Positions 6,401-28,390 are shown, numbered from the stretch's first letter. The stretch: 32,000 nucleotides of DNA from Nitrososphaera viennensis EN76 (GCF_000698785.1 NZ_CP007536.1:90001-122000), one strand, 5' to 3'. The notes: generated from the sequence alone by a model not told the origin. Program-made: numbers and translations.

Positions 6401-9400
6401 AGAGCGATCCGCTCGCTGTCAGAAACGCTCTCTGTGACAGACATAGTCGCTTCTAGGACATCGCGCTCGCTGTCTGATGCGATAACCGTGGCAGATGCCA
6501 TCGCCAAGTCCGTCTCGCGCTCTATGTCTGAAACAGTCGGCATAACGGACGCGGTATCAACCTCTGCCTCGCGCTCGGCTTCCGACTCGGTCGCAGTGGC
6601 CGACAGCATATCCACGGCCACCAGCCGTTCGCTGCAGGATGCCCTGTCAATCACCGATGCCGCCTCGCCAACAGGCGTCCGCTCGCTGTCTGAAACAGTC
6701 GCGATAGCAGATTCTATCAGCCGCTCTGTTTCGCGCTCTATATCCGACACGCTCACGGTTGCAAGCGCAATCGTGCCGACCACGTCCAGCGGGCTTGCAG
6801 ATGCGCTAGCAATCACGGACGCAATCGGCAGGTCTATATCGCGTTCCATCGCCGACACGCTGACAGTCACCCCAAGCGCAAACAGCGGCGCAACACCTGC
6901 GGTATTTGACAGCGTGGCCGTTACAGCATCGGTATCTATCGGCGTGTCAAGGAGCATCTCTGACTCTGTGACCGTAATCTCAGAGATCTTGCAAGAAGGC
7001 GCCCGCACGGCTGACGTCAGCATTATAGTGGGAGACGCAATAACCACTAGGGTCTCGCGCTCTATATCGGATGCGCTGTCAGTCACGGCTGATGACATGC
7101 TGAAATCCATGTCGCGCTCGCCAAGCGACACGGTAACAGTGGCCGACGCAATCACCGGCAAGACAAGCCGCTCCCTATCTGACGCGCTATCGCTCGCTGA
7201 CGGCATATCCACCTCTACAAGCCGCTCCCTTGACGACGCAGTATCGATGACAGACTCCATCAGCCGCGCCGTCTCGCGCTCTATCGTAGACGCCCTGGCG
7301 CCAGCAGACTCTGTATCCACCGCGGTCACGCGCTCGCTTGCAGACTCTGTGGCAGTCGCCGACACCGCCTTGGGCAAGTCCGTCTTCCGCTCTGCATCTG
7401 ACACAATTGCCCTTGAGGACAAGATCAGCATGGCGGTGACAAGGTCGGTTACAGAGGCAGTTACCCTTGCAGACTCGGCAGTTCAGTCTACAGGCAGCAA
7501 GCTCTTTGACTCTGTAGCGGTTGGCGACCACATTTCGACGTCTGTGTCGCGTACAGTGTCCGAAGTGCTGTCGATGGCAGACGCCGCGTCCGAGTCGACG
7601 TCGCGCCCAGTCGCAGACGCGCTCTCTGTCACGGACGCCGTAAAGATATCGGTCGCCGGCGCAGTGTCTGATTCGGTGGCAGCCAGCGACGTCATAAAGA
7701 TGTCAGTCAGCCGCAGCGTCGCCGACTCTGCAACAGTTTCAGATGCAATGGCAACTTCCGGCGACAGGTCGCCGGCAGAAACCGTGTCCGTTACAGATGC
7801 AATATCAATGTCTGCAAGCCGGTCAGTCTCTGACGCACTGGCGGTTTCAGACAACGCTTCAAGGGCGCCTGCCCTGGCAGTCGCCGACACGCTTGCAGTG
7901 GCCGACGCCATCTCTACCAGCAACAGCTACTCTGTAACAGTCTCTGACACTGTGTCTGCGGCCGACTCGATGACAAGGGCGCTGGGGGCATCGAGGCTTG
8001 CAGGCGACGCGCTTGCAACAACAGACGCGATAGGCACGCCTGCCTCGCTTGCAAGGGCGATATCTGACACGCTGGCCGTTGCTGATGCCGCCCTGGCTGG
8101 AGGCTCGATCAACGTGCCGATATCTGACTTGCTGACAGTCTCTGACGCGATAGCAAAGGCGGGCTCCGGGCCGTTCAGCGATGCCGTGGCAGTGACCGAC
8201 GCGGTGTCGATAGGCATAAGCCGCTCGATAGAGGATGCGATGTCGATGGCTGACTCGGTGGTGCCTCCAGTCATGCGCGCCATGGGCGACGCAGTTGCAA
8301 TAGCCGACCAGGTGTCCGCGATGATGGGCACTGCGGTGTCAATAGCCGACTCGGTTGGCATCAACTCGCAGATAACAAACGTGTCGGTGCACTGGAACAG
8401 GGTCTTTGAAGAGGGAGTCAATCTGGCAGACTGCACGCCGTTCTCGTGCAACCAGTCGCTGCACTTTGATGAAGGCCTGAGCCTGGCCGACGACGACTTC
8501 TTTACCTCGCCGCCTGGCCGCGTACTGCCCGCAAGCATCGCAGTAACGGACAGCATAGGAGTCAACAGGCCCCAGACCTTCATATCGCTTGCCGACTCGG
8601 TGGAAGTGTCTCCGGCAGTCAAGCCGCTCCTGCCAATCCTCGTCAACAACCACGCGGACGACCATGGCAGGCCGCCGAACTTTTCCGTTCCAGGCAACTA
8701 CACCTGGGACGGGACCCCTGCATCCCTGAGGGATGCCCTGGAGCTTGAGCCGCTCTACTTCAACACGACGGTGAACCGGGACAACCTGCCAAACCAGATA
8801 ATAACGCTCCGGCTCTGGGACGTGGCAATAGTGCCTACTGCTAACCTGCCTGCAAACAACACGCTCATATCTGATCGCGCCGCAAACATCCCGGCAGGCG
8901 TGCCCGTGCAGGTGCGCGTCAACTTTATGGACACTCCGTCTCTGTCCAGGCACTCTGACTTTATCCGCTCGCTGGACGTGCAGTTCACTCCTGCCATGCT
9001 CACCACAGACTTTGGCCTGATAGTGACTCCTATGGATGCCCCGCCTGCAGGGGCAAGCGTGCCGCCAGAAGAGCTTAGGCCGCTGTACATCGACGTCCGG
9101 TGGTGGGGCAACGTCCCCGGCGGGTCCGATCCTAGCGTCCAGAGCTACTACCAGAACCCGCCCACGTTCACCTTCACGGTAACCGACGAGTGGGCAAGAT
9201 CAGAGTCTGCCGTGAGGGATGCAAACGGGGTGCCTCTCATAAAGCTCAGGCTGCTCAACGAGGCTACGAACCAGTGGGAGGAGATAAACACGGTACAGAG
9301 GCCCACATCGTCTGCAAATGACGGGACGTACACCTTTACTGCAACCCTGCCCCACTTCTCTGACTATGTGATAACTGCGGTCAAGAGTGCGACTTCAGGA

Positions 9401-12978: not shown

Positions 12979-13197
12979 TTATATGTTAAACTACGCTTTT
13001 TCATGCGTGCTATGCAACAAAAGCGTTGCATAACTCGTTGCATAGACACTGAACCGTCAAAACATCACTTCTGCTAAACATTTCGACCCAAATAAATCAA
13101 GTAAGACTATAATATTTTCCGACTTTATTATTTGTTATATGGTATATCTATCCCCCTACCACGTCAGTGTCAAGCAATCATCCGAATGTTTGGAAAG

Positions 13198-15005: not shown

Positions 15006-15284
15006 ATGAGTGTAGCGACTGACATCTTTTGTGCATTAGGACAATGCTGGATAGGGGAGGGCATAGATGGCATTTACGTTGTCGCAACAACCCTTCTGGA
15101 CATTGCAATAAAGCTGTCGCCGATGTTCGGTGTCATGTACTTTGGCTACTGGCTGTTCCTGATAATTCGGACAGTAAGGGAAGGCAGCCCTGAGCCGATA
15201 ATGAACCATGTGATGTTTGCCTGGCAGGTGATAACCGGCATAGTCCACGCCTTCATGAGCTTTATCAAGCTCTTCATACCGTGA
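15006..15284 (+). CDS. Small integral membrane protein (2-3 predicted TM helices)
   Basis: The protein is 92 aa and hydrophobic. It is the first gene of a run of overlapping or abutting plus-strand genes (15006-16884). Confidence 0.5.
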   Translation: MSVATDIFCALGQCWIGEGIDGIYVVATTLLDIAIKLSPMFGVMYFGYWLFLIIRTVREGSPEPIMNHVMFAWQVITGIVHAFMSFIKLFIP

Positions 15285-15295
15285 GGCGAGAAAAG

Positions 15296-15877
15296 ATGGC
15301 AGAACCTGAAATCATCTTCCAGATCCTGAACAGCGAAGTCGTTGTGTTTGGAATAATCATGGGTGTCGTAGCTTTGCTTTCAAAAGTGATTGTCCCAAAG
15401 GTGCTGCCTGTCCTAAAAAAGATTCTGGACAAGCGGCAGCGCAAGGACGGCGATATGCCTGAGAGCCTTGGCACCCTCAAAGTGTTCATCAGAAGCGGCG
15501 ACCTGATAAAAGAAACGCGGGGCAGGATACTCAAGGACGGCTCGATAGCAGCCGACGGCAAGACGTGGGTAATTGAGCGGATCAGGCCGTACCTGCTAAC
15601 AAAGGGACGGAATTCAAGGCCGGCCGTAATTCTGGACGCAGACAAACAGGTGGAATACAGGTTCAAGGATGCCGTTGAAAGTAACAGTACTGATAAGCAG
15701 CAAGACATTGCCGGACAGGCCACAAACCCTCACCTGCTAAAGCAATTCTCAGACAGTATCGTGATCCAGAAACTGGCAGCCGCCAAGCCTGACAAAACAA
15801 TGATGTTCATGATGTTTATGATGGGGATGTTTGCGCTTATGATGCTTCAGCAATTCATTCCTAAAGGAGCGCCTTGA
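15296..15877 (+). CDS. Bitopic/two-TM membrane protein with a Met-rich C-terminal helix (track start GTG 15281)
   Basis: N-terminal TM 'VVVFGIIMGVVALLSKVIV'. C-terminal 'TMMFMMFMMGMFALMMLQQF'. The track start overlaps the stop of the upstream gene. Confidence 0.6.
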   Translation: MAEPEIIFQILNSEVVVFGIIMGVVALLSKVIVPKVLPVLKKILDKRQRKDGDMPESLGTLKVFIRSGDLIKETRGRILKDGSIAADGKTWVIERIRPYLLTKGRNSRPAVILDADKQVEYRFKDAVESNSTDKQQDIAGQATNPHLLKQFSDSIVIQKLAAAKPDKTMMFMMFMMGMFALMMLQQFIPKGAP

Positions 15878-15881
15878 AGGT

Positions 15882-16241
15882 ATGAGCGAGCCAAAGAAGG
15901 AGCTGAAAGACACAGAGCCCTGGACATCGGTAGTACTGGCAACAAAGGCCCTGACAAACCCGCAGGGCAACGAGATATTCACCCTGACTGAGCTGAACGA
16001 AAGCGAGATCAGATACGGTGTTCAGGCGTTAATTCTGGCGGACGCGTTCAAGACGGACCTTTTGACAAATGTGGTAGTCAACCTCGCAGTACTGAAAAGA
16101 AGCCGCGACAGAAAGGGAGAGTCCAGCGTCATCAAGCTTGTAAGGAACGCAAGTATGAAGATGATGCAGAATGTTCAGATGAGCAGGTTCAAGCGGGTCA
16201 TGTCAAACAGGGACGATTTCACCGACTATGACAAGGATTGA
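15882..16241 (+). CDS. Hypothetical soluble protein
   Basis: The ORF is 119 aa. It starts 5 nt after the upstream stop and overlaps the next gene by 14 nt, which suggests translational coupling. Confidence 0.6.
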   Translation: MSEPKKELKDTEPWTSVVLATKALTNPQGNEIFTLTELNESEIRYGVQALILADAFKTDLLTNVVVNLAVLKRSRDRKGESSVIKLVRNASMKMMQNVQMSRFKRVMSNRDDFTDYDKD

Positions 16242-16884
16242 CCAGCTGAGGGGTCAGGAGCGGCAGCTGACCAAGCTAATACGCAAATGGCACAAAGAAG
16301 GCGAGTTCAGGCTGGTTCTGATATATGGCACCGGCGGCATAGGCAAGACTAGCTACGCCATGCAGTGCGTCAAGCAGGTAGACCCTGACAATTACAGGCA
16401 GCGGTTCATCTTCCCGCCAAGGCAGTTTGTAGACACTGTGTCATGGCTGAAAAGCAACCGATTGAGAATACCTGCACTAGTATGGGATGACATGGGCTTT
16501 TGGATGTATACGCTGGACTATAACGACCCTTTTGTCAAGTCGGCTGTCAAGTTCTTTAATGTGGCAAGGACCGTTGTATCCTGCATTATTGGAACGACTA
16601 CAAGCATGAAGATGCTGACAAGCTCTGTCAGGAATATGGATGCCTTGACGGTCAAGGTCGTAGCAGCAAGGGATAATCCTTACACATCGTTGGCTAAAGG
16701 ATACAGAACATCATTGCAGCCAAACCTTATGCGGCTGGTCAAGACGGTGTTTGAAGACGAATACCCAAGGTACATGGAAGAGGATGACTACCTATGGTAC
16801 AAACCAGTTCGAGACAGCTACGTGAACGAGGCTATCCGCCTAATGCAAGAATCCTTGGATAAGAGGTCTGAAATTAGCAGTTAA
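16228..16884 (+). CDS. P-loop NTPase (Walker A/B; spacing reminiscent of DnaC/IstB-type AAA+ proteins)
   Basis: Walker A 'GTGGIGKT' (nt 16327-16350). Walker B 'ALVWDD' lies 47 residues after the P-loop lysine. Confidence 0.8.
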   Translation: MTRIDQLRGQERQLTKLIRKWHKEGEFRLVLIYGTGGIGKTSYAMQCVKQVDPDNYRQRFIFPPRQFVDTVSWLKSNRLRIPALVWDDMGFWMYTLDYNDPFVKSAVKFFNVARTVVSCIIGTTTSMKMLTSSVRNMDALTVKVVAARDNPYTSLAKGYRTSLQPNLMRLVKTVFEDEYPRYMEEDDYLWYKPVRDSYVNEAIRLMQESLDKRSEISS

Positions 16885-16890
16885 CGTTGT

Positions 16891-16915
16891 AGGCTGTTTT
16901 TTGTTATTACAGCCT
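16891..16915. terminator. Hairpin plus T-tract between convergent genes (possible bidirectional terminator)
   Basis: AGGCTGT (16891-16897) and ACAGCCT (16909-16915) are separated by the loop TTTTTGTTATT. The hairpin sits between the stop at 16882-16884 (+) and the stop at 16907-16909 (-). Confidence 0.45.
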
Positions 16916-18937
16916 GAGATGAATCTTAATTCTCTTGTAATTTGCGTAAAGACTGACAGGATTGATTTCAGCTGCTCGTGCAATCTCCTTGGCACTGCTG
17001 CGATGTGCTTCTCCAGACATTATCACTGCCACATGAACGGCGGCGGCTGCCGTGGCTTTTGGGCTGCGACCTCCAAGCAAATTTGCATTATTTAGCCTGT
17101 CAACAATCTCTCTAGCTTTCTGTTTTGCGTGTTCTGAAAGACCCAGTTTTATCGAAATACTGTCTACAGATTGGATGGCCTTCTCGTAGGTGCTCAGCTG
17201 AGCGTTACTTGGTATATTGAGAACTATGCGTTCTTTTGGATCCAGATACACTTCATTTCCTTGCTTTTTCTTCTTCAGGAATCCTTTCTTTTCCAGATAA
17301 TCTACTCTGTTGCGGATCATTTTTTCCGTAATGTCTCCGCCATGCAGTGCAGATATCACATCGGTCAGAGTCTTGCCACCATCACGTATCTGCCTTCCTA
17401 TTTCATAATCAAGGACGTGTCTGAGCAGCTTTCTGTAAAATGGAGCGCGTATCCCGGTCTGCTCATAGAGGTAGTCTAGACTTTCCAGCAGGACTACAGA
17501 GAACCTTTCAAATCTATCTTTCTCCTGTCTCTCCATTTCATCCCATACAACCTGCCAGTCAAACCCTGAGCTCTGTGCAAGCCGGGCCATATCCTGTACG
17601 TCTCCTTCCCGGAGCGTTAGCCCTTTCATGAGGAATACATCTTCGTTTGCCATGATTCCAAGTTTCACCTTGCCGTGTACTTCGATCTTGGCTCGCTTTT
17701 TCATCCTGCCTGAAAGCGCAAGCTTGCGTGCAACGATTCTTGTAAAGATATCCACCCTGCTTCTTGCAGGATGCTCCAAGATATCTGATGCAGCTATTCT
17801 CTGATCGTCTGCTGACAGCCTTGATTTGTTAACAGATGTATAGCCCAGCTTCTTCAGTGTCTCTACGATGTGATTGAAAGACCTCTCATCCTGGACTACC
17901 AAGTCGCAATCCTTGGTTCGCGGCTTCAAGCCCTTGAGCCGCATGTTTTCGCCACCCAGCAGGTACGCTTCGGTCTCTGAAGGGATGTTTTGACCTATGT
18001 CTTTAAACAGGTCCGGGTAGGCTACAGGAAGCGTGTAGCTCTCTGTCGGAATGTCATAGAGCCTTGCCTTCTCTTCAAATTCTTGCCAGGGCAGAAACAG
18101 ATTCTGGTTTTTCACAGGTGTGTTCCGTAGGTAGCCTTCTATGTCCACCCACACGTCTGATATCATGTAATCTCTGGCTACCTTGCGGAGGGCCAGCGGG
18201 TCGAGTTTCTGCTTGTTCTTCAGATAGAATATCATGGCCATTACGATGCCGTGCTTGTCCTGCTCTTTGCTCGCCGCAAGCACGGCGTGTATAAGAGCTT
18301 CTGCAAGCTGAAGTGGCGTGTCCTGCTCGATATAGTAGTCATGCGTTGTGTGATATTCTACGCCGTAATCGGGAAAAAGCGAAAAACCGGTGAGCTCTCC
18401 ATCTACCCGCTTGCCTTTTGGAACCTTCTTTAAGGTCCTAGCAAGATCTTGATAGATTATTTCCGCGTACGGCTCGACGTGTTTTTTTTCGCTTTCTGTC
18501 TTCAGATATTCCGCATATAGGTAAAGCGGCTCAAAATACCTGTTCAGATTTACTTTGCCCTTTTCATCCCTTCGGACCACACCAATGGATTCCAGCTCGG
18601 ATATTGCTCTTTGAACAGTCCTAAGCGACAGGCCAGTCAACCTCTGAATATTATTGATCGTTTTTGGCTCGGTCAGATTCTGGAACACCAGCTCATTTGA
18701 ATCGTGGAGCAGCTTTTCGACATCGAACTTGGACGCAACATCCCTGAAGAGGATTGTTTTTGAATTCGCCTTGAAGGTTATGGACGAGTCAGTCTTTTCT
18801 ATGTAATCCTGATTAGCAAGATCCCTTACCAAGTTGTTAAACTGCCATTCCCTGATCCCAATAATGTTCATTAGCTCTTTTGGATTAGATGCTCCATCCC
18901 TTACTGCCTTGAGCAGTGCTATTGCCGAAGGGTTCAT
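16907..18937 (-). CDS. Multidomain fusion: wHTH x2, Pol-beta-type nucleotidyltransferase domain, wHTH, C-terminal TFB/TFIIB-like cyclin fold
   Basis: NTase signature 'LLGGENMRLKGLKPRTKDCDLVV' fits hG[GS]-x13-D-x-D (nt 17894-17962), followed downstream by 'LMKGLTLREGDVQDMARL'. The C-terminus 'AKQKAREIVDRLNNANLLGGRSPKATAAAAVHVAVIMSGEAHRSSAKEIARAAEINPVSLYANYKRI' (nt ~16910-17170) matches the TFB cyclin-repeat pattern (G[RK]SP...AAAA.Y.A...GE...T..E.A....V...T.RNRYK). wHTH-like segments lie at aa 5-55, 84-132 and 517-567. Confidence 0.85.
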   Translation of the reverse strand: MNPSAIALLKAVRDGASNPKELMNIIGIREWQFNNLVRDLANQDYIEKTDSSITFKANSKTILFRDVASKFDVEKLLHDSNELVFQNLTEPKTINNIQRLTGLSLRTVQRAISELESIGVVRRDEKGKVNLNRYFEPLYLYAEYLKTESEKKHVEPYAEIIYQDLARTLKKVPKGKRVDGELTGFSLFPDYGVEYHTTHDYYIEQDTPLQLAEALIHAVLAASKEQDKHGIVMAMIFYLKNKQKLDPLALRKVARDYMISDVWVDIEGYLRNTPVKNQNLFLPWQEFEEKARLYDIPTESYTLPVAYPDLFKDIGQNIPSETEAYLLGGENMRLKGLKPRTKDCDLVVQDERSFNHIVETLKKLGYTSVNKSRLSADDQRIAASDILEHPARSRVDIFTRIVARKLALSGRMKKRAKIEVHGKVKLGIMANEDVFLMKGLTLREGDVQDMARLAQSSGFDWQVVWDEMERQEKDRFERFSVVLLESLDYLYEQTGIRAPFYRKLLRHVLDYEIGRQIRDGGKTLTDVISALHGGDITEKMIRNRVDYLEKKGFLKKKKQGNEVYLDPKERIVLNIPSNAQLSTYEKAIQSVDSISIKLGLSEHAKQKAREIVDRLNNANLLGGRSPKATAAAAVHVAVIMSGEAHRSSAKEIARAAEINPVSLYANYKRIKIHLRL

Positions 18938-18966
18938 TGCCTTTCAGTGTCATATAATCACGTACA

Positions 18967-18978
18967 TTTATATAAATA
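18967..18978 (-). promoter_or_regulatory. Archaeal TATA-box-like element for the 16907-18937 gene
   Basis: The minus strand reads TATTTATATAAA about 30-40 nt upstream of ATG 18937. No Shine-Dalgarno site is present, which is consistent with a short or leaderless 5' end. Confidence 0.5.
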
Positions 18979-19059
18979 TGTGCTTGGATGACACTGAAAC
19001 TACTAAAGCCGGAACGAGTGGACCGACAGCATTCGCTCCGAACATAGAAATGAATTGAT

Positions 19060-20400
19060 TCAGGAGGGTTTATTCCTGACCAAAGTTTCTATCTTTCTCC
19101 AAAAATCATCTGCAAAAGACAATACTTCTTCATCCTCCCATCCTCTGCCATGTAACCTTAGCTTCACATCACTGTATACCCTTTTTCCTTCCGTGGTATC
19201 ATAACCTATAAAACACGTCCTCCTTTTCTCGTCTCTGGCTACAATTGTACTTGACAGTTCATTGACCTTGAATCCTTTCGACCTCAGCCACTCGTTTACT
19301 CCAGGAATTATTTGCCCAATCTCTGATAATTTCTTCTTGAAAGATTTTGTTTCAACCTTCTTCACCGGCTCATTATAGTATTCCTCTTCCCAGTCATGCA
19401 GGATTAGTGCATCACCGTACTTTCTTATTAGTTCGTCCTGCAGGCTCTTGAGCTCATCAATAATATCTGTCACTCTATTGAAATTGTTAAAGGATAGAAC
19501 AGCTTCATCCAGACCTATTTCTGTAATTGTCTTTAATCCCTTAATGACATCTCTTCTAATCCTGAACTGCCTTACTGCTTCATTCAATTCCTCTGCTGTA
19601 TCGCCAGTGTATTTTCCGTAGTCATATTCGGAGTATCTATAGCTCATATTGCGTGTTATGCTCTCAAGACCCCGTCCTAGATTCTTCATTCTTTCTGGCC
19701 CTATTGCTTTGTGTTTTAACAGAACCTCTCTCAGAACTCTTGGATTGTCTTTGCAAATTCTTCTAATCGCGTTTTTCGCATAGTCGAATAACGACTTTTT
19801 CTGGTCGTCAAGAAGGTTCTCAAGTGCCGGAATATGCATTACGCTACCTTGCCTTTCTATGATATCTATTGCATATTCTTTTAGGTCATCATCGGTACTC
19901 TTGGCAAGAGTATCCAGAGCTGCTGTGATGGCATCCGGAGATGGAATACCCCGTAATGTATCCAGTATGTACATTACAAGGATTACATTGTCTTGGTTTT
20001 GATGCAATGCCTCTACGAGCATAGGAACCGCCGCCGTTCCAATTTTTTGGAGCGAGGATACCGTATGTTCTCCGATACTATCATCAAATTCAACCTTGAA
20101 CAGCTTGATTAGTTCGGGCACAGCACTAGGATCTTTGATTTCTCCAAGAATATCAACAATAAACTGAGCGTACAATTCGTAGGATTCATTCTTTTGGTAA
20201 TCCTGGAGTTCTTGTGTCAGTTTGGGAACTGCTTGTTTACCTAACGCGATAAGGCCCTCTATTGATTTTTGTGGGATGAGTGAAGCGTCCATATCCTTGA
20301 TATCGGATATATCGTCATCTACATGAAGACCTGCTATGAGTTCGCTAATGGACCAATCCTCTTTCATGACGCAGAAATTTGTGCGGTTGTTAAAGAACAT
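19060..20400 (-). CDS. HEAT-repeat (PBS-lyase-type) protein with an uncharacterised C-terminal half
   Basis: Repeated 'AVPxL...L.......V....IL..LG.I.D' units occur: 'AVPKLTQELQD', 'DPSAVPELIKLFK', 'GTAAVPMLVEALHQNQD', 'SPDAITAALDTLAKSTDDD'. The gene lies 122 nt upstream of the NTase-TFB fusion gene and is co-directional with it. Confidence 0.75.
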   Translation of the reverse strand: MFFNNRTNFCVMKEDWSISELIAGLHVDDDISDIKDMDASLIPQKSIEGLIALGKQAVPKLTQELQDYQKNESYELYAQFIVDILGEIKDPSAVPELIKLFKVEFDDSIGEHTVSSLQKIGTAAVPMLVEALHQNQDNVILVMYILDTLRGIPSPDAITAALDTLAKSTDDDLKEYAIDIIERQGSVMHIPALENLLDDQKKSLFDYAKNAIRRICKDNPRVLREVLLKHKAIGPERMKNLGRGLESITRNMSYRYSEYDYGKYTGDTAEELNEAVRQFRIRRDVIKGLKTITEIGLDEAVLSFNNFNRVTDIIDELKSLQDELIRKYGDALILHDWEEEYYNEPVKKVETKSFKKKLSEIGQIIPGVNEWLRSKGFKVNELSSTIVARDEKRRTCFIGYDTTEGKRVYSDVKLRLHGRGWEDEEVLSFADDFWRKIETLVRNKPS

Positions 20401-20506: not shown

Positions 20507-20722
20507 ATGGCTACAAAACCAAACAAGCAAACCAAGCGGGCAGCCATGATGGGATTTTTGGCAGCACTTGGAGCGATTGCAGCCTACCTGATGCCGACGC
20601 CGGCGTATGCCCAGACTACGGGAACGATGGACATGACGCCGCTGGTGTCGGTGATAGTTGCAATCATCCCGGTGTTCATCATGATAGCCTTGCTTGACAA
20701 GCTGATGGGGAAGTTCCGGTGA
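20507..20722 (+). CDS. 71-aa hydrophobic protein: signal-peptide-like helix (AYA|Q) plus one TM helix and a basic C-terminus
   Basis: 'MATKPNKQTKRAAMMGFLAALGAIAAYLMPTPAYAQTTGTMDMTPLVSVIVAIIPVFIMIALLDKLMGKFR'. It is the first gene of a co-directional secretome cassette. Confidence 0.6.
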   Translation: MATKPNKQTKRAAMMGFLAALGAIAAYLMPTPAYAQTTGTMDMTPLVSVIVAIIPVFIMIALLDKLMGKFR

Positions 20723-20728
20723 CAGACT

Positions 20729-21409
20729 ATGAACCGAGACAGCATAATGACAGCAGCATTTGTGGTGCTTGTCCTCCTGACAGCCACATCGCAAGTTGCA
20801 TATGCATTGCCAAGCCCAATACAGTTCCAGCGCAGCATCCCCTTCTCCGTGTTCAACACTACGTCGGCAACGGTCTACACGGCAGACAAGCCTATCTCGC
20901 CGCCCTTTGAGATAGATATCGTGAACCAGCTGACCTACAACTCGACAGGGACTAAAGCGGCGGGAGTAAAGTTCCAAGACGCGACTACGGGTTCCATGAA
21001 TGCGCTGGAGATAAAGACGTACAACAACAAGGCAATCGACATACTGTGGACCGACAAGACCACCGGCTCAACTACAAAGATAGGCGGGATGGCAGGTGAA
21101 GAGCAGCAGTCATTTCCAAAGGAGATTATAATCGAGAACCAAGGCTCGTCTCTCAGCATAAAGCTTGCAGACGGCACAGTCATCATCGACAGCTTTGTGC
21201 TGCCAAGCAACTTCAAGATACTGGCAGTAAGTGCCTTTGGAAATGAAGCTAGCGTTGCGTCTGACGGCTTTATCACTGTCTACGTAGGAGGATTAAGCCC
21301 GACAAAGATGGTCAGCGTCAGCGTGAACGTGATGGTGCCGCTGCTAACCGCAATAGTGACAATAGGAATAGTTTTCACCCTCTTCAGCAAACTAAAGAAC
21401 AAGATATGA
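20729..21409 (+). CDS. Secreted protein with a C-terminal TM anchor
   Basis: N-terminal signal 'MTAAFVVLVLLTATSQVAYALP'. C-terminal 'VMVPLLTAIVTIGIVFTLFSKLKNKI'. The stop overlaps the next start (ATGA at 21406-21409). Confidence 0.7.
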   Translation: MNRDSIMTAAFVVLVLLTATSQVAYALPSPIQFQRSIPFSVFNTTSATVYTADKPISPPFEIDIVNQLTYNSTGTKAAGVKFQDATTGSMNALEIKTYNNKAIDILWTDKTTGSTTKIGGMAGEEQQSFPKEIIIENQGSSLSIKLADGTVIIDSFVLPSNFKILAVSAFGNEASVASDGFITVYVGGLSPTKMVSVSVNVMVPLLTAIVTIGIVFTLFSKLKNKI

Positions 21410-22317
21410 TGGCAGCGCACCACCACTCCTCTTTTTTGTTAATCGCATTGGTCGCAATTGTGATTGCAGCTGTAGCAGGTCTAACTGACTCTGCCACCGG
21501 CGCAAACCCTGTTTTCAATTCTACCCGTGCTTACGATTACATTGCCAGCAACTACAATTCCACCTACGGCTTGGTGAGAGAAAATGAGAATATTGACAGG
21601 TACTGGCTGTGGACTGATAACCTGCTTGCAAGTCACGTCTTGAAGGAATATGATTATGCAAAGTCAGCAAACATGACTGCCACAATCAGGCACTACAACG
21701 AGCTTTATGACTTGGATTTCAGACATCCTGTAGGTTCACTGCTGGACCAGGTAGCCTACTTTAATTCTGTCACGGACAAGAGCGTGACAGGAAATGTATG
21801 GATCTCAGATTCTGATGGCTCTGTCGAGCTTGAATGTAGCGACTATGGAGACATTGCCTTTTACAAATCGATTTACTACTACAGGGCAGGTATGACGGAT
21901 AAAGCAAAGTCCTGTTACGAGATGGGTGCTGCAATGTTTGACGGCATCGGGATAAGGGACAAGGCGTTTGAGCCTGATGGCCAGAGGTACAGCACCTACA
22001 AGATGGCTCTCTGGCAGATAGCCAGCAACATGACTGGCTTTGGAGAAGCAAAGGAGGCCATGACAATCATTTCGTACATGCAAGACTCCACAACCGGCGG
22101 GGTGTATACACACTATCGCGCAAATATACTGCCTGACAGCCAGACCAATGTTGAAACTACTTCGCTTGCAATACTGGCAGACAAAGGAATGTCTTTTCCT
22201 CCGACTTCAAAGCAGACTGACCCTACAACAACAAGTGCACCACCCATTGAATTGTTGGTGGGAGTGTTCGTTGCAGCAGGACTGGCCGTGATCTTGGTAA
22301 AACGGTTTTGGCGTTAA
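21406..22317 (+). CDS. Membrane-anchored extracellular protein, probably alpha-helical repeat
   Basis: N-terminal TM/signal 'SFLLIALVAIVIAAVAGL'. C-terminal TM 'LLVGVFVAAGLAVILVKRFWR'. Several N-x-S/T sequons are present. 'RYWLWTDNLLASHVL' and 'YKMALWQIA' look like helical repeats, but the fold is not established. Confidence 0.7.
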   Translation: MMAAHHHSSFLLIALVAIVIAAVAGLTDSATGANPVFNSTRAYDYIASNYNSTYGLVRENENIDRYWLWTDNLLASHVLKEYDYAKSANMTATIRHYNELYDLDFRHPVGSLLDQVAYFNSVTDKSVTGNVWISDSDGSVELECSDYGDIAFYKSIYYYRAGMTDKAKSCYEMGAAMFDGIGIRDKAFEPDGQRYSTYKMALWQIASNMTGFGEAKEAMTIISYMQDSTTGGVYTHYRANILPDSQTNVETTSLAILADKGMSFPPTSKQTDPTTTSAPPIELLVGVFVAAGLAVILVKRFWR

Positions 22318-22367
22318 AAATGAACGGTTATCAAATGTAATATTGAACTGTTACCAACTAGGTCTGT

Positions 22368-23879
22368 ATGCGTGAAAACGCATACAACGCAAAACCAAAA
22401 GTCGCACTAGCCTTCGCGGCTATTGCGCTGGTTCTGTCAGCCTCACTTTTTGTACCTGTACAACAGGCGGAGGCTGCCAAGCCAACACACAGCGACATCC
22501 AGACGGCGCTGAACCTGGCAAACGGCTACATCAACTCCCTGTACAAGGACGCGTCACCTGATGAAGTGGGATCTAGCACCCATGCGGTAATGGCAGAGTA
22601 CCCGTCCATACCTATCCGCGTCGTTCAGTCTGACGGTCGCGTGATAAGGGCGGGCGAGGACGTGGACATCAAGGTTGGCTGGAAAACAAACTACATCTCT
22701 GACCTAACCGAAGTCTCGAGCGACACTATCAAATACAGACTACGGTTCCGCGCTCTTGACATAGGTGGTGCTGCTGTAGACAAAGCCCCGATGCTTGAGA
22801 TAACCGTCGATTATGTCTATGGAGCAAACAATAACGTCAAGGTAGACATCAAAAACTATCTCTGGGAGACCACCGCGAACATCTCTTGGGCAGACATCTA
22901 TCTCGGTAGCACCTACATAGGCCGCGCAACCCCGTCCAACGTTGGAACCACATGGACATACACCTCAAGCGTGAATCACGGCAACGATGTCTTCTTCAGG
23001 TCGTTCCGTTACATCGAGAGGCACGGCACACAACTAGGTCGCGAATACTACAATGCAATAGGACAGACAAGCAAGGGCACAGAGTTAGCGAGCAGGCTGA
23101 CGGCTGAAGGCTATACTCTGGGCAAAGACATCTACTCTCCAATGTTTGGCAGTGGAACCTCGCAGTCAAACAACTTCCTGTATGAATCAGGGTCCAGCGG
23201 AGTATACCGGGACTGCTATACCGAGCCTGCTATGAGGAACAGGTCGTACCAGTACCATAGCAAGGTCTGCAATGGCGTCGACGCGTACATCATCTACAGC
23301 AGGTCAAGCGACTGGCTCGTTCCTACGCTGTGGGCTATCCACCTGCTTAACAAGGGCGTAGGCGCGGACGTTCCGGTATACGATGGCTACAACACATGGT
23401 CCCCGCGTCAAGTGGCTAGATTCGCGGAGAGCAAGTGGATCGCAGACATCGGCATCCAGTCGCCGGCAAGCAGCAGCCATGCAAGCGCAGTCAGGACAGC
23501 CGCGTTCTTGGTTCTTGAAACCAAGTTGGGCTACGGGTCCGTGAACGACGCGACAAGCAGGACATATGCAGACAAGGCCGCAAGTGCACTGCTGAACCCG
23601 CAGGTCAAGGCTAACGGCAACGTCATTCGCGAGAACGAAAACGGCTCGCAGACCACGCTGATAAGGCCGGTGCATGAGGGCGGATTCTATACCGCATGGA
23701 ACGGCTTTAACTACGTGGCAAAGAAGTCAGTCCTGCAAAACATAGCAGATGCCTTCAACCAGTCCGACGAGACCATAGACATCAAGCCGTCAAATGCGGA
23801 ATCGACTATCACTATAGCGCAGGCCCTCCGCGTGTTTGACTGCTACAACTATGGGTACAACTGCACAAACGTTCCATAG
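22368..23879 (+). CDS. Large secreted protein of unknown function
   Basis: Signal peptide 'KVALAFAAIALVLSASLFVPVQQAEAAKP'. The ORF is 503 aa and I recognise no motifs in it. Confidence 0.8.
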   Translation: MRENAYNAKPKVALAFAAIALVLSASLFVPVQQAEAAKPTHSDIQTALNLANGYINSLYKDASPDEVGSSTHAVMAEYPSIPIRVVQSDGRVIRAGEDVDIKVGWKTNYISDLTEVSSDTIKYRLRFRALDIGGAAVDKAPMLEITVDYVYGANNNVKVDIKNYLWETTANISWADIYLGSTYIGRATPSNVGTTWTYTSSVNHGNDVFFRSFRYIERHGTQLGREYYNAIGQTSKGTELASRLTAEGYTLGKDIYSPMFGSGTSQSNNFLYESGSSGVYRDCYTEPAMRNRSYQYHSKVCNGVDAYIIYSRSSDWLVPTLWAIHLLNKGVGADVPVYDGYNTWSPRQVARFAESKWIADIGIQSPASSSHASAVRTAAFLVLETKLGYGSVNDATSRTYADKAASALLNPQVKANGNVIRENENGSQTTLIRPVHEGGFYTAWNGFNYVAKKSVLQNIADAFNQSDETIDIKPSNAESTITIAQALRVFDCYNYGYNCTNVP

Positions 23880-23910
23880 GGAAGGCTTTTTACCTTCCTT
23901 TTCCTTTTTT
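23880..23910 (+). terminator. Hairpin followed by an oligo-T tract, immediately after the 503-aa gene
   Basis: GGAAGG (23880-23885) and CCTTCC (23893-23898) are separated by the loop CTTTTTA, followed by TTTTCCTTTTTT (23899-23910). Oligo-T tracts are the known archaeal termination signal. Confidence 0.6.
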
Positions 23911-24025
23911 AATAATCGTGCGAGCATCTTTCAAGGCCATCATTGCCGGCATAGGCATTCTTGTTGCCTTTGGTATGTTCTACTGGAACGTGCTGATCGC
24001 AGGCGCGGCTCCGCCGTAAAGCCTG

Positions 24026-24403
24026 TCAAGCTGCAATCTTGGGCTTCTTTATCTCGCCGGCAAGCATCAGCTTCTTGACTTCATCTATGCTGAGGGCAAA
24101 GCCCACGTGTATGCACTCGTCGCTCTCGCAGCTCAGGCACTGCAGCACGCCATTTTTGATCTCCACTTCGATTATCCTCTGCTTCTTGCTATCAAAGATT
24201 GCGATCTTGTTGTCGTACAGCCCGAACTTTGAAAGGCGGGGCATCTTCTTTGCCCACTCTTTGTGAAGCTGTATCAGGTATTCCAGGAACACATTTAGCC
24301 CGACGTCCATCTTTGACGACGTGGAAAGCTTCTGCCTCTCCTGCATTATCTCTTCAAAGACTTTCTCGCTTACTGTTAATGACTTCTGTCCTGTTCGTGG
24401 CAT
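24026..24403 (-). CDS. RHH-like N-terminus plus SWIM-like zinc knuckle protein
   Basis: N-terminal 'KSLTVSEKVFEEIMQERQKL...GLNVFLEYLIQLH' follows the RHH pattern. 'LQCLSCESDECIHVGFA' fits C-x2-C-x4-C-x-H (nt 24107-24139). TTTAAATA on the minus strand lies 26-33 nt upstream of the ATG. Confidence 0.7.
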   Translation of the reverse strand: MPRTGQKSLTVSEKVFEEIMQERQKLSTSSKMDVGLNVFLEYLIQLHKEWAKKMPRLSKFGLYDNKIAIFDSKKQRIIEVEIKNGVLQCLSCESDECIHVGFALSIDEVKKLMLAGEIKKPKIAA

Positions 24404-24570
24404 CCACTTAACTATGAACAGTGCACAATATTTAAATTGAACGGTTACCTTTCTAGTGAATATTGTTCTATTTTTGCTCGTTTTGGTAACTAATAGTAAC
24501 CGTGCACATACGTGTTAGGACACCGTGTATTTATATAGCTGGGCACCATTAACAGTATTGGAGATGCACT
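24404..24570. promoter_or_regulatory. Divergent promoter region of the integrase operon and the 24026-24403 gene, with a repeated GTAACCGT motif
   Basis: TTTATATA (24530-24537) lies 34 nt upstream of GTG 24571. The minus-strand TATA is at 24429-24436. The motif occurs as ACGGTTAC at 24441-24448 (inverted), GGTAAC at 24485-24490 and GTAACCGTG at 24496-24504, and again at 24595-24603 inside the small ORF. Confidence 0.5.
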
Positions 24571-24744
24571 GTGCCAAGATATAACCAGAAGTCGGTAACC
24601 GTGTCGATCAGCCTGAAGAACAAGATAAAGGAGTACATGAAGGACTATGGCTTTCACAGCCAGCCGCAGGCAATTGAAGATGCACTGACTCTGGCAAGAG
24701 GGGTTAGGGCTGTCGTGACGAAAAAGGAGGCCGCGGTTGAATGA
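24571..24744 (+). CDS. 57-aa ribbon-helix-helix protein (absent from the ORF track), translationally coupled to the integrase; possible excisionase or regulator
   Basis: My translation from GTG 24571 is 'VPRYNQKSVTVSISLKNKIKEYMKDYGFHSQPQAIEDALTLARGVRAVVTKKEAAVE*', which follows the RHH pattern. The stop TGA at 24742-24744 overlaps the integrase ATG 24741 (ATGA). Confidence 0.6.
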   Translation: MPRYNQKSVTVSISLKNKIKEYMKDYGFHSQPQAIEDALTLARGVRAVVTKKEAAVE

Positions 24745-26150
24745 TGGTACAGTCTGATGCAGTATCTGAAAAGGCCGGCAACATTCAGAAGTTCGACCAT
24801 CCGAGGATTGAAAGAAAGAAGAGCCGCCTTCGCGTCAAAGGCATCAAAGTCAGCGACAAGGACAAGATCAGAGAGGCAATAATGATCAGCGTCCAGAAGG
24901 GCAACTACACCACGCGCGAGATCGGGCTTGACATAGGCAAGGACTACAGCACAGTTTCAAGGTATCTCTCAGAGATGGAAGGAGATACAAGGTGGGGAAT
25001 AAAGCGCGATGCAAACGGCAGCATCGTAATGTCGCTGCAGCAACAGCTAGCCCACGAATACGCCAAGCTGCAGAACGAGAAATTCTCGCAGCTTCCGTCC
25101 ATACAGAAGTGGATAACGTACTTAAAGTCAGCTGGCATACCCGCAAGGCGTATCCAGTATATGTTAAACATCATTCATGGGATCGCGGATCAGCTGCTGG
25201 TGATGCCGGAGACCTTAGTCAGCTACGGAGTACCCATCGACACTGCAAAGAGGAAAGAGATAGCCATAGAGTACTGGCAGAATTTTCTTGCATGGTTCAA
25301 TACCGCGTACCCGCAGATGCAAAAGACAAACACCATCAACGCTTATCGAAGCTTTCTGTCTTCCCACAGCGTTAACTTTGCTCACGGCGAAGGCAAGAGA
25401 TACGGACTCTCAACAACGCCGGAGAGGCTTGGGGAGTACAAGGAAATCATGCTCACGCCTGAGCAGATTGCCATCATAAACAAGCGTCTTGAGAATGAGG
25501 GCGACTGGGAATCCTGGTCGTTTATGAACATCGATCTACACAGTGGAGCTAGAGCATTTGCTATGGCGTCCATGAGCTGGGATAGAATAGTGATGTCTCC
25601 TGCCTTCAGGGTAGAGCAGTTTGAACCCAAGATCAAAAAAGGTGCATGGTACCTTACAAAGGAAGGCAAGTGGTGGGTCAAGTACCCGACTGAGGAGTGC
25701 AGAGCGGTAGTCGAGACCGCTTATGACAGGTTACCAAAAAGGGATTTTGTGTTCTTTGATGATTCGGGAAGTGACAAGGCTAACTGTCTGCAGGTTAGCT
25801 ATTTCATGCACACGATGGCAGTCAAGTTCAAGAAGATATTCTTGGATCTTAACAAAACAAGCTGGCTCAACGAAAAGACTAGGATCTATGCGCTAGGCGA
25901 TGGGTTGTACTTTAACGGTCATCCATTACACCTGTTCAGGCATACGATGGCTCAATATTACCTGGCGGCTACAAACTGGTCTCTTGCTTACGTGGCAAGC
26001 TTAGGCGGATGGGAAAACACGGAAGTACTGAACAAATGCTATGGCGGAATACCCGAGCATATCAAGGTGCAAGTAGCAAAGTCTATACACGTCAGGTTTG
26101 ATAGCATACGTCTCAATGCCTCAATAGCCAACATTGACAGACATTTTTAG
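24741..26150 (+). CDS. Tyrosine recombinase/integrase (intact) with an N-terminal HTH region
   Basis: C-terminal catalytic motifs are present: 'HSGARAFAMASMSWDRI' (box I Arg), 'HLFRHTMAQYYL' (H-x-x-R-H) and 'LGGWENTEVLNKCYGG' (W...Y nucleophile region). N-terminal HTH: 'TTREIGLDIGKDYSTVSRYLSEME'. Confidence 0.9.
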   Translation: MMVQSDAVSEKAGNIQKFDHPRIERKKSRLRVKGIKVSDKDKIREAIMISVQKGNYTTREIGLDIGKDYSTVSRYLSEMEGDTRWGIKRDANGSIVMSLQQQLAHEYAKLQNEKFSQLPSIQKWITYLKSAGIPARRIQYMLNIIHGIADQLLVMPETLVSYGVPIDTAKRKEIAIEYWQNFLAWFNTAYPQMQKTNTINAYRSFLSSHSVNFAHGEGKRYGLSTTPERLGEYKEIMLTPEQIAIINKRLENEGDWESWSFMNIDLHSGARAFAMASMSWDRIVMSPAFRVEQFEPKIKKGAWYLTKEGKWWVKYPTEECRAVVETAYDRLPKRDFVFFDDSGSDKANCLQVSYFMHTMAVKFKKIFLDLNKTSWLNEKTRIYALGDGLYFNGHPLHLFRHTMAQYYLAATNWSLAYVASLGGWENTEVLNKCYGGIPEHIKVQVAKSIHVRFDSIRLNASIANIDRHF

Positions 26151-26599: not shown

Positions 26600-26611
26600 G
26601 CAACTAGTTGC
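26600..26611. promoter_or_regulatory. Perfect 12-bp palindrome GCAACTAGTTGC spanning the in-frame TAG and the TTG start of the methyltransferase (possible operator)
   Basis: The palindrome was read directly. It is flanked by GGGG (26592-26595) and CCCC (26611-14). An A/T-rich 'CGATATATTG' lies about 30 nt upstream. Confidence 0.35.
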
Positions 26612-27756: not shown

Positions 27757-28390
27757 CACAGTTCTGCATTGGAGCAGAAGAAATATCCGGGATTTTCCTT
27801 GGCGCAATGGTTTCTCTCCGTACAGGGTACTTATCGCGGAGCTTCTTCTAAGGCGCACGACGGCTCAAGCAGTACAGCGCGTTTACGATGAATTTATAGA
27901 GACCTATCCCGACCTCCAGCATCTTTCGAAGGCATCTATCGGGGAACTTGAAGACCGTCTTAAAACACTAGGATACCATAGACTAAGGGCAATATTGATC
28001 AGGGAAGTCGTCTCTGAAATGCTATCCAAATACAAGGGGATCCCAGACACACTAGAGGAATTATTATCGATCAAGCATATTGGCCTATACACAGCAGCCG
28101 CTATCATATCACTAGGCTACAATAAGCCATTACCTATGGTCGACACTAATGTACTACGGATATTGGGAAGAGTATATGGTCGGTCGATGACACAACAACA
28201 GGCCTTTGAGCTTTTGAAAGGAAAACTACCAGTTGACTCCAGACGGTTTAATTTATCTCTGCTCGACTTTGGAGCGCTTGTATGCAGGTATAAGAATCCG
28301 TTGTGTCATGTTTGTCCACTAAATGACTCATGTACATATTACCAAATCAAGGTAAAAAATACGAAGTATAGGGAGCAGGGGCCTAGCTAG
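27719..28390 (+). CDS. HhH-GPD / Nth-MutY-family DNA glycosylase with a 4Fe-4S cluster loop (Mig-type T:G mismatch glycosylase candidate)
   Basis: 'FPWRNGFSPYRVLIAELLLRRTTAQAV' is a MutY/Nth-like N-terminus. HhH 'LLSIKHIGLYTAAAII'. Catalytic-Asp region 'VDTNVLRILGRV'. 'CRYKNPLCHVCPLNDSC' fits C-x6-C-x2-C-x5-C. The gene overlaps the MTase 3' end by 38 nt and has a TTG start. Confidence 0.85.
   Translation: MRKEIDKEKEIVNTVLHWSRRNIRDFPWRNGFSPYRVLIAELLLRRTTAQAVQRVYDEFIETYPDLQHLSKASIGELEDRLKTLGYHRLRAILIREVVSEMLSKYKGIPDTLEELLSIKHIGLYTAAAIISLGYNKPLPMVDTNVLRILGRVYGRSMTQQQAFELLKGKLPVDSRRFNLSLLDFGALVCRYKNPLCHVCPLNDSCTYYQIKVKNTKYREQGPS

Follow-up and report, generated by a model that had tools for sequence, protein, structure and literature searches.

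A stretch of 32,000 nucleotides from Nitrososphaera viennensis EN76 (GCF_000698785.1, NZ_CP007536.1:90001-122000; hereafter the window, with positions counted from its first letter) contains, on the minus strand at 16907-18937, an open reading frame (ORF) for a protein of 676 amino acids, exactly where a preliminary description of this DNA had placed it. From N- to C-terminus the predicted protein consists of two winged helix-turn-helix (wHTH) domains, a middle domain resembling HVO_2833_C, a nucleotidyltransferase (NTase) domain, a third wHTH and a single cyclin repeat of the TFB type. An identical protein is encoded in two complete 2.52-Mb genomes (CP103305 and CP104300). The middle domain (residues ~135-300), the split-gene counterparts of the protein and a palindrome in its promoter go beyond what the preliminary description had reported.

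An AlphaFold2 (AF2) model of the whole protein, built on the alignment of its homologs, has a predicted local distance difference test score (pLDDT) of 89.8 and a predicted template modelling score (pTM) of 0.72, and a separate model of residues 135-510 has a pLDDT of 91.4. The full model contains wHTH units at residues 1-57, 78-132 and 501-567, in agreement with the three such segments noticed earlier, together with a middle alpha/beta and helical unit at ~135-300, a bi-lobed NTase at ~305-500 and a five-helix repeat at 583-673. All features of the gene lie on the minus strand. The first wHTH (18767-18937) has the AF2 pattern H-H-H-E-E and matches MarR_2 and wHTH-PRTase_assc under threshold; its counterpart in the first gene of a haloarchaeal gene pair, described below as gene A, matches MarR_2 with 50 bits. 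The second (residues 78-132, 18542-18706) also has a wHTH pattern in the AF2 model and scores 25.0 bits for TrmB against a cutoff of 25.6, with TrmB matching 21 of 30 family members and many further HTH families of Pfam matching the same domain. The third (residues 501-567, 17237-17437) shows the AF2 pattern and gives wHTH matches to Penicillinase_R, PaaX and MCM_C, and its counterparts at the C-terminus of distant homologs match TrmB or ArsR. In general, the Pfam wHTH matches are sub-threshold in the 676-amino-acid protein and above threshold in homologs. The middle domain (18038-18535) is likened to HVO_2833_C (PF24271) through homologs, 7 of 30 of which have full-length, below-cutoff matches; for the 676-amino-acid protein itself, PF24271 does not appear among the Pfam matches shown.

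Conservation, the profile matches of homologs and the predicted fold place the domain at residues ~305-500 (17438-18025) among the Pol-beta-superfamily NTases of the DUF6036/MenT1-like kind. Its motif I, G328-G329 ... T341-K342-D343-C344-D345 (17903-17956), is made of residues that are invariant or at least 90% conserved in 77 sequences. Within LLGGENMRLKGLKPRTKDCDLVV (residues 326-348), G328-G329 is followed by 13 residues and D343-x-D345, which fits the Pol-beta signature hG[GS]-x9-13-D-x-[DE] and bears out the signature named in the preliminary description. Among 77 homologs reaching down to 38% identity, G328, G329, E330, N331, M332, R333, T341, D343, D345, K438 and D449 are invariant, and conservation reaches at least 90% at K342, D378, R380, D396, R443 and D446. 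A downstream helix had been described as K..L..R..D..D...L; its residues are present, and that spacing proved approximate, the actual pattern in KGLTLREGDVQDMARL (residues 438-453) being K-x4-R-x2-D-x2-D. D396 probably supplies the third carboxylate of the Pol-beta NTases, and all the core residues, D396 included, are kept in the haloarchaeal DUF6036 homolog, in which motif I reads GGG...TKDID. Taken alone, the 676-amino-acid protein matches DUF6036 (PF19502) weakly (E=0.035, 14.4 bits against a cutoff of 23.6); the cutoff is exceeded by homologs P0026 (24.7 bits), P0170 (37.1 bits) and the haloarchaeal gene B product (34.3 bits), and the domain is assigned to the DUF6036 family by transitive sequence homology.

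Searching the PDB with the model of residues 135-510 in Foldseek returned the Mycobacterium tuberculosis toxin MenT1 (8an5_B, E=6.3e-5, template modelling score (TM) 0.57, ~185 aligned columns; 8an4_B, E=4.6e-4; TM 0.56-0.57 for the two chains) and the protein TM1012 (TM 0.61). The structural check suggested in the preliminary description thus led to MenT1 and TM1012 for the NTase and, as set out below, to TFB/TFIIB for the tail. In MenT1, D41, K137 and D152 are required for toxicity and T39 is a regulatory phospho-acceptor (PMC10435456, PMC11375011). The MenT1 residues T39-R40-D41 correspond to T341-K342-D343, and its K...D...D residues to K438 ... D446/D449, as matched by pattern and not by superposition. 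A search of PDB sequences with a profile of the central region returned uL10/Mrt4 alone, at the chance level of E~0.03. One homolog has an unexpected architecture: in P0241 (637 amino acids) the transmembrane domain of a Na+/H+ exchanger is joined at its C-terminus to a DUF6036 NTase.

The relationship of these domains to one another is best seen in haloarchaea, where tblastn against plasmids found 100 records matching residues ~1-549. In a few of these (Halalkaliarchaeum, Halovenus) there is one fused gene, annotated as an 'ArsR family regulator', and most of those that were listed or inspected have two adjacent genes, a 'MarR family transcriptional regulator' of ~310 amino acids (gene A) and a 'DUF6036 family nucleotidyltransferase' of ~270 amino acids (gene B), with the stop of gene A and the start of gene B overlapping by 4 bp. 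The gene A product (308 amino acids) contains MarR_2, a TrmB-like domain and HVO_2833_C (PF24271, 164 bits), and it aligns to residues 63-300 (E=8e-11), the alignment stopping where the NTase starts. The gene B product (267 amino acids) matches DUF6036 with 34 bits, above the cutoff, and aligns to residues 311-500 with 35% identity (E=3e-30); it keeps GGG...TKDID, RxDIF and K...R..D..D, and its C-terminal stretch resembles a wHTH. Because genes A and B align colinearly to residues 1-567, we conclude from these alignments that this part of the protein is a Rosetta-stone fusion of a two-gene operon resembling toxin-antitoxin (TA) operons. Of the features of such operons, the 4-bp overlap is found in the split form, and in the window, where the halves are fused, just the operator applies.

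The family as a whole is large. Ammonia-oxidising archaea hold at least 154 clusters of homologs, about half of them with the TFIIB profile PF00382, and an exhaustive profile search with the central region yielded 1028 relatives, among which are tail-less fused forms of ~510-570 amino acids and stand-alone DUF6036 NTases of 216-280 amino acids. The tail-less fused forms that were looked up belong to Bathyarchaeia and other Thermoproteota and are annotated simply as 'MarR family' or 'wHTH protein'. Up to three paralogs occur per genome. Database names for family members are generic regulator labels, and some members carry the JGI automatic annotation 'TFIIB/Brf1'. The preliminary description had held the combination of an NTase with a TFB repeat to be undescribed. 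Our literature search found no paper on HVO_2833, DUF6036 or a TFIIB+NTase fusion, so that this part of the claim stands; its suggested survey of architectures showed that the TFIIB-tailed form is common in ammonia oxidisers and not rare. The architecture is therefore common there yet undescribed and functionally unannotated.

Several contexts of the split form were recorded in passing. A Nitrososphaera contig (L072) that encodes the fused, tail-less protein P0007 also carries a separate 318-amino-acid MarR + HVO_2833_C gene (L072:1-231, minus strand), and split and fused forms may thus coexist in one genome. On plasmid 2 of Halalkalicoccus jeotgali (L071, 1-5556) the MarR + DUF6036 pair lies directly downstream of a Zn-ribbon TFB gene and spt4, and a second 'TFIIB cyclin-related' gene is also near the pair; this proximity to TFB genes in another phylum may or may not be coincidental. 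Four other plasmids (L069, L070, L075, L076) show Orc1/Cdc6, then a divergent ORF of ~107 amino acids, then the regulator and NTase in split or fused form, with PolB upstream in two of them; this arrangement may reflect a common plasmid backbone or a functional tie to replication.

Immediately upstream of the 676-amino-acid gene, on the same strand at 18942-18999, lies a predicted palindromic operator with promoter, in which an outer inverted repeat encloses a TATA-like box. The outer arms, TTTCAGTGTCAT (18988-18999) and ATGACACTGAAA (18942-18953), form a perfect 12-bp inverted repeat with a spacing of TTTCAGTGTCAT-N34-ATGACACTGAAA, and the central box TTTATATAAA (18967-18976) is itself palindromic. 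In promoter order the region reads TTTCAGTGTCAT-N11-TTTATATAAA-N13-ATGACACTGAAA-ggca-ATG, with the right arm 4 nt from the ATG and an inner partial repeat CACAT..ACGTG. Across the family the geometry is that of arms of 9-12 bp, a spacer of 33-38 nt, a central TATA box and a right arm 0-6 nt from the start codon. Arm sequences differ by subfamily (AGTGTCA, ATTATCA, AGTATCA, AGTCTCA). A constrained palindrome test requiring at least 9/10 was passed by 26 of 51 family promoters and by 3 of 433 control regions, which lie upstream of other genes at these loci (Fisher p=1e-25). When 43 promoters are aligned, complementarity holds for 79% of paired cells, compared with 28-44% when the partner is slid; double-sided changes occupy 94 cells against 38+-6 in shuffles, a number reached in 0 of 500 shuffles, and of these two controls the slide carries more weight since the shuffle ignores sequence kinship. 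The inner repeat (CACA..TGTG or TGC..GCA) co-varies too. An RNA hairpin was considered and is disfavoured: with a left arm situated upstream of the TATA box and few G:T cells, the palindrome is taken to act as a DNA element.

In haloarchaea, too, this layout is found ahead of gene A or of the fused gene, usually around a TATA box. Examples are GTTGTCTCA-N36-TGAGACAAC|ATG and TGTAACAT-N34-ATGTTACA, the latter with an inner CGAAAC..GTTTCG around TTTATA, and in Halovenus a 14-bp repeat is present at the equivalent promoter. The operator is also kept in close relatives whose flanks are unrelated. Within the window, exact half-sites are confined to the promoter of the 676-amino-acid gene itself. 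Control of the whole surrounding element through this operator was considered and is not supported; there are five half-sites with one mismatch, and the total of seven matches, against 2.3 expected, was reached by 2 of 100 shuffles. Two of the one-mismatch half-sites (13044-13053, minus strand, and 13163-13172, plus strand) lie ~110 nt apart in an intergenic region after a histidine-kinase gene; the geometry of this pair is unlike that of the operator, and the number of such matches is near chance. The simplest interpretation of the palindrome is negative autoregulation, in which the protein's own wHTH domains would bind across the TATA box and the TFB recognition element (BRE), with a leaderless or near-leaderless transcript.

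The C-terminal tail (residues 583-676, 16910-17191) is a single TFB/TFIIB-type cyclin repeat according to PF00382, NCBIfam, PDB, Foldseek and the AF2 model, and the second TFB cyclin repeat proposed in the preliminary description is confirmed. PF00382 covers residues 585-671 (E=1.1e-10) and scores 41.8 bits, the gathering score being 23.6; it also matches 19 of 30 family members. Of the 312 positions in the NCBIfam TFIIB profile only 219-306 are covered, and the second cyclin repeat of Pyrococcus TFB (1D3U/1AIS) aligns with E~2e-10, or E=5.6e-19 with the family profile. The best Foldseek matches of the predicted tail are likewise TFB/TFIIB (1ais_B, 1d3u_B, E~1.5e-4), with a TM normalised to the target of only ~0.45 and deviations of 13-15 A (root mean square, rmsd). 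The repeat carries the GRxPxxxAAA signature. A Zn ribbon gave no profile match in the 676-amino-acid protein, whose N-terminus is a wHTH; there is one PF00382 stretch, and since the region upstream of it is occupied by a wHTH and the helical lobe of the NTase, the first cyclin repeat is lacking as well. In TFB and TFIIB, the Zn ribbon, the B-reader/linker and the first cyclin repeat mediate recruitment of RNA polymerase (RNAP) and most of the contact with TBP, and an arginine in the recognition helix of the HTH contacts the BRE. At the position aligned with that arginine the present protein has a tyrosine, and the helix varies across the family. Judged by these sequence features, the protein is not a general transcription factor and not a TFB.

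Tails were compared over the Nitrososphaerota loci of one genome sample. A TFIIB repeat is present at 9 loci, an unrelated tail of ~120-130 amino acids at 38, and no tail at 7. The unrelated tail was considered as a divergent cyclin and this was ruled out (hhalign probability 0.65% against the TFIIB tail). In a neighbour-joining tree built on the core and lacking support values, the TFIIB-tailed proteins of Nitrososphaera and Nitrosopumilus form one clade within the diversity of the alternative tail, and this clade holds three tail-less members. A single tailed clade with few tail-less members suggests one ancient gain of the repeat, followed by long retention and sporadic loss. Of the three tail-less members, L014 has the cyclin repeat in another reading frame directly after the end of a 574-amino-acid ORF, whereas L072 and L011 truly lack it; in two metagenome cases it is called as a separate small ORF. 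The cyclin tail is absent from all relatives outside Nitrososphaeria. We regard it as an accessory tail confined to a single subfamily of ammonia-oxidiser proteins. As to the TFB lineage that donated it, a word-indexed search gave just two split-ORF fragments.

The sister paralogs with the alternative tail are linked to another class of genes. A DO-GTPase gene lies downstream, on the same strand, at 14 of their 38 loci and GAP1-N2 at 10 of them, compared with a DO-GTPase at 0 of the 9 TFIIB-tailed loci, the count covering the two tailed classes. In Nitrosopumilus, examples with the two genes at positions +1 and +2 include L010, L021, L023, L026, L027, L030, L037, L043, L044, L050 and L064. Neither DO-GTPase nor GAP1 genes are found around the 676-amino-acid gene in the window. 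DO-GTPase and GAP1 form the core of predicted GTPase-centric conflict systems that have variable effectors and use many nucleotide-related components (Kaur et al. 2020, PMC7159879). In the main text of that paper the word 'Thaumarchaeota' is absent, and neither of the two mentions of 'nucleotidyltransferase' concerns these systems.

The window gene sits in a putative integrated element whose backbone surrounds it. A left block on the plus strand (15006-16884) holds ORFs of 92, 198 and 119 amino acids and a DnaA-like AAA+ ATPase (16228-16884), and a right block (20507-26150), also on the plus strand, holds a 71-amino-acid hydrophobic ORF, ORFs of 226, 303, 503 and 80 amino acids and a tyrosine-integrase-like ORF (24741-26150), with one 125-amino-acid ORF on the minus strand. 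The left block is supported by phrog_5484, tblastn and synteny, the right block by synteny. The 218-amino-acid ATPase matches the PHROG family 'DnaA-like replication initiation protein' (phrog_5484) over its full length (E=5.9e-27), and tblastn links it to DnaA-like genes in Aeropyrum spindle-shaped virus 1 (APSV1) and Sulfolobus fuselloviruses (SSV); the 469-amino-acid integrase-like ORF matches phrog_1 (E=1.6e-9). Nine ORFs (15006-16884 and 20507-24078) have syntenic homologs with 41-78% identity in N. evergladensis and/or a Nitrosocaldaceae metagenome-assembled genome, and a tenth backbone ORF (24026-24403, minus strand) matches L078 at 31%. Amino acid identity in the right block to L077 and/or L078 spans 31-73%. 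The backbone counterparts are L077:8800-16745 and L078:9002-15059, and the N. evergladensis copy carries a Rep_1 rolling-circle Rep and a resolvase.

In the syntenic elements the ATPase gene is followed by a gene for ~75 amino acids, directly or after one small ORF. At this site in the window, the 676-amino-acid gene and, upstream of it on the same strand, a gene for a 446-amino-acid HEAT-repeat protein (19060-20400, minus strand; HEAT_2, E=1.4e-10) are inserted on the opposite strand. Both are absent from L077 and L078, and because these syntenic elements lack the two inserted genes, the 676-amino-acid gene is opposite-strand cargo in what is probably a fusellovirus-like integrated element, the HEAT-repeat gene being co-inserted. 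The HEAT-repeat protein was considered as a functional partner and ruled out, as its gene is absent beside all close homologs of the 676-amino-acid protein. Beside homologs of 70-87% identity lie unrelated genes (a restriction enzyme, IS605 OrfB, small ORFs). The earlier statement that the gene is encoded by a mobile genetic element (MGE) holds for the window and fails for orthologs that lie in housekeeping regions. The element is missing from published tables of integrated MGEs for both Nitrososphaera genomes, assuming comparable coordinates. A search for att sites found just short direct repeats at chance level, and no capsid gene was identified in the element. IMG/VR held no confirmed relatives of the 676-amino-acid protein, the family profile or the ATPase, tblastn of the protein against annotated phage and archaeal-virus records gave no match, and BFVD gave per-domain matches only.

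Two further observations concern the rest of the window. A giant ORF of more than 3370 amino acids (386-10498, plus strand), part of a product of ~4047 amino acids in complete genomes, has a GC content of 57-61% compared with 41-53% in the 13-32 kb part. Just past the integrase, at 26608-28390 (plus strand), two overlapping genes encode a C5 cytosine DNA methylase (PF00145, E=6e-63) and an HhH-GPD/EndoIII-like glycosylase, and the pair may represent a methylase with its companion mismatch-repair glycosylase.

By analogy with known systems we favour, with moderate confidence, the interpretation that the 676-amino-acid protein is an autoregulated toxin-regulator or abortive-infection module of the AbiE/MenAT kind, fused in one polypeptide and extended by a variable sensor or adaptor tail. 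Using its wHTH domains, the protein, probably dimeric, would bind its own operator and occlude the TATA box and BRE, so that the wHTH-HVO_2833_C half would serve as the cognate regulator or neutraliser and repress its own promoter while intramolecular contacts keep the NTase inactive. Once triggered, the NTase would nucleotidylate the 3' end of RNA, for which MenT1 suggests the acceptor ends of tRNA, blocking translation and arresting growth; tRNA as the substrate is a tentative proposal drawn from that analogy. The arrest of growth could stabilise the carrier element or exclude rival viruses. The variable C-terminal tail would have a sensing or adaptor function like that in CapRel and similar fused TA defence proteins: the TFB repeat might contact TBP/BRE at the promoter palindrome or capture an invader factor aimed at TFB, and the unrelated tail of the sister paralogs might couple the protein to DO-GTPase/GAP1 systems. 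That the module is mobile is suggested by the varying neighbours at 70-87% identity, by the presence of up to three paralogs per genome and by the cargo insertion in the window. The preliminary description had also mentioned an abortive-infection-type effector, and this part of it agrees with the MenT1-like fold, the TA-like split operon and the DO-GTPase/GAP1-associated paralogs, as a prediction.

Several observations weigh against this interpretation. The sequence models of AbiEii/DUF1814 and AbiEi and the AbiE models of PADLOC give no match: PF08843 (AbiEii) is absent among the best 25 of 28 Pfam matches at E<=10, and AbiE models are found neither in PADLOC at E<=0.1 nor in NCBIfam. An AbiEi-like N-terminal half was considered and ruled out, with no Pfam or NCBIfam match and no AbiEi among the 50 listed fold matches. 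The likeness to the MenT1 fold is moderate (TM 0.57, rmsd ~6 A) and is based on an AF2 model. The middle domain (~135-300) has no significant PDB fold match in Foldseek, and for this reason its 'antitoxin-like' role is a guess. Covalent fusion is not the classical TA arrangement. The TFB repeat is dispensable in close relatives, being truly absent from L072 (84% identical) and L011 (80%), and the role given to it above is conjectural. One Nitrosopumilus-type ortholog lies between NAD-biosynthesis genes and NurA-HerA-Mre11-Rad50, a location that fits a cellular role equally well, and every functional step set out above is predicted from sequence.

A narrower version of the interpretation, which we think improbable, makes the TFB repeat a functional TFB decoy or sensor through which the state of the pre-initiation machinery would gate the MenT-like NTase, with two wHTH-anchored protomers sitting on the operator. 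The repeat would then engage TBP/BRE at the central TATA box or capture an invader protein that targets the host TFB. If this were true, the protein would be an abortive-infection or addiction module that senses the transcription machinery, travels as viral cargo and is conserved among ammonia-oxidising archaea.

Among the alternatives to a toxin-regulator module, the one that survives best, though we consider it unlikely, is a non-toxic transcription regulator whose NTase senses nucleotides, modifies the protein itself or makes a signal, thereby tuning DNA binding. Four HTH-type modules and a conserved autoregulatory palindrome are what such a regulator would have, some orthologs reside in stable housekeeping contexts, databases name family members regulators, and covalent fusion suits allosteric control; nucleotide-related components are moreover frequent in DO-GTPase/GAP1 systems (PMC7159879). 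The nearest folds of the NTase, however, are the proven toxin MenT1 and TM1012 and not CD-NTases or sensor domains, and stand-alone DUF6036 NTases exist without the regulator half. Where the two genes are split, they overlap within an operon that is enriched on plasmids, a layout typical of TA systems, and the distribution of the family is patchy, multi-copy and context-hopping.

It had further been proposed in the preliminary description that the protein mimics TFB, docking on TBP/DNA or RNAP to deliver nucleotidyl transfer, and that the element would in this way take over host transcription; we regard this as very unlikely. The repeat is of genuine TFB type, the gene is borne by an integrated element in the window, thaumarchaeal integrative and conjugative elements carry TFIIB homologues (PMC6563490), and contact with TBP is conceivable at a family operator that is centred on a TATA box. 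The docking proposal nevertheless finds no support in the parts with which TFB makes its contacts, as the protein has one repeat only, without Zn ribbon, B-reader/linker or first cyclin repeat, and a tyrosine where the arginine that contacts the BRE would align, in a recognition helix that varies in the family. The tail is also dispensable, being absent from homologs of 80-84% identity and from all relatives outside Nitrososphaeria. Takeover of host transcription is at odds with exact operator sites that occur at the gene's own promoter only, and with orthologs in contexts other than MGEs.

A role in replication or maintenance of the mobile element, for example in origin binding or in copy-number control together with the element's initiator, is suggested by the position of the pair or fusion beside Orc1/Cdc6 in 4 of 7 sampled haloarchaeal plasmid loci (two also beside PolB), by the adjoining DnaA-like initiator ATPase in the window and by PHROG wHTH matches to replication-initiator families, but it is highly improbable, as the syntenic elements in N. 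evergladensis and Nitrosocaldaceae lack the gene, which is thus not needed for element replication, the majority of the family resides on chromosomes among unrelated neighbours, the plasmid synteny may merely reflect related backbones, the PHROG matches cover the generic wHTH only (residues ~92-140), and TA modules also commonly sit beside replication genes.

Bacteria possess many defence and addiction systems in which, as in AbiE/MenAT, a regulator is paired with an NTase. The HVO_2833-type regulator with a DUF6036 NTase, split on haloarchaeal plasmids and fused in Thermoproteota, is a candidate for a broad archaeal counterpart, with an operator architecture conserved across phyla and natural tail variants in the form of the TFB repeat, the DO-GTPase/GAP1-associated tail or none. 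If the toxin-regulator interpretation is correct, ammonia-oxidising archaea, for which few such systems are known, would gain a defence or addiction module, a domain of a general transcription factor would have been recruited as sensor or adaptor, and DO-GTPase/GAP1 conflict systems would be placed in these archaea with the wHTH-NTase protein as their effector. The carriage of the gene as cargo by a putative, uncatalogued fusellovirus-like element is relevant to competition between viruses in soil nitrifiers.

In comparison with known systems, the protein resembles AbiE/MenAT in pairing a wHTH regulator with a Pol-beta-type NTase, in the overlapping two-gene operon of haloarchaea and in the inverted-repeat operator in its own promoter, AbiEi being known to autoregulate through promoter inverted repeats. 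The NTase fold is nearest to MenT1, and the [S/T]-basic-D and K...D...D residues are kept (PMC10435456, PMC11375011). Unlike those systems, the NTase is of the DUF6036 and not the DUF1814 family, the regulator carries HVO_2833_C, the halves are fused in Thermoproteota, an extra wHTH follows the NTase, the tail is variable and the family is archaeal. CapRel(SJ46) consists of a tRNA-modifying toxin domain fused to an autoinhibitory or sensor C-terminal domain, which evolves fast and recognises an invader protein; the likeness is one of concept only, as the enzyme there is RelA/SpoT-like and here a Pol-beta NTase. With archaeal TFB and eukaryotic TFIIB the protein shares one five-helix cyclin repeat, best matched by the second repeat of Pyrococcus TFB, and it differs from them in lacking the Zn ribbon, the B-reader/linker and the other repeat, in its diverged recognition helix and in the attachment to an enzyme. 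In DO-GTPase/GAP1-N2 conflict systems, the alternative-tail paralogs lie directly upstream, in the position of the variable effector, whereas the window gene has no GTPase or GAP1 neighbours and has the other tail. The haloarchaeal MarR + DUF6036 pairs (HVO_2833-type, known by PGAP names only) differ in comprising two genes, in having no C-terminal tail and in being plasmid-borne in Halobacteria, and they resemble the window gene both as homologs of residues ~1-300 and ~305-567 and in the layout of a palindromic promoter that abuts the start codon.

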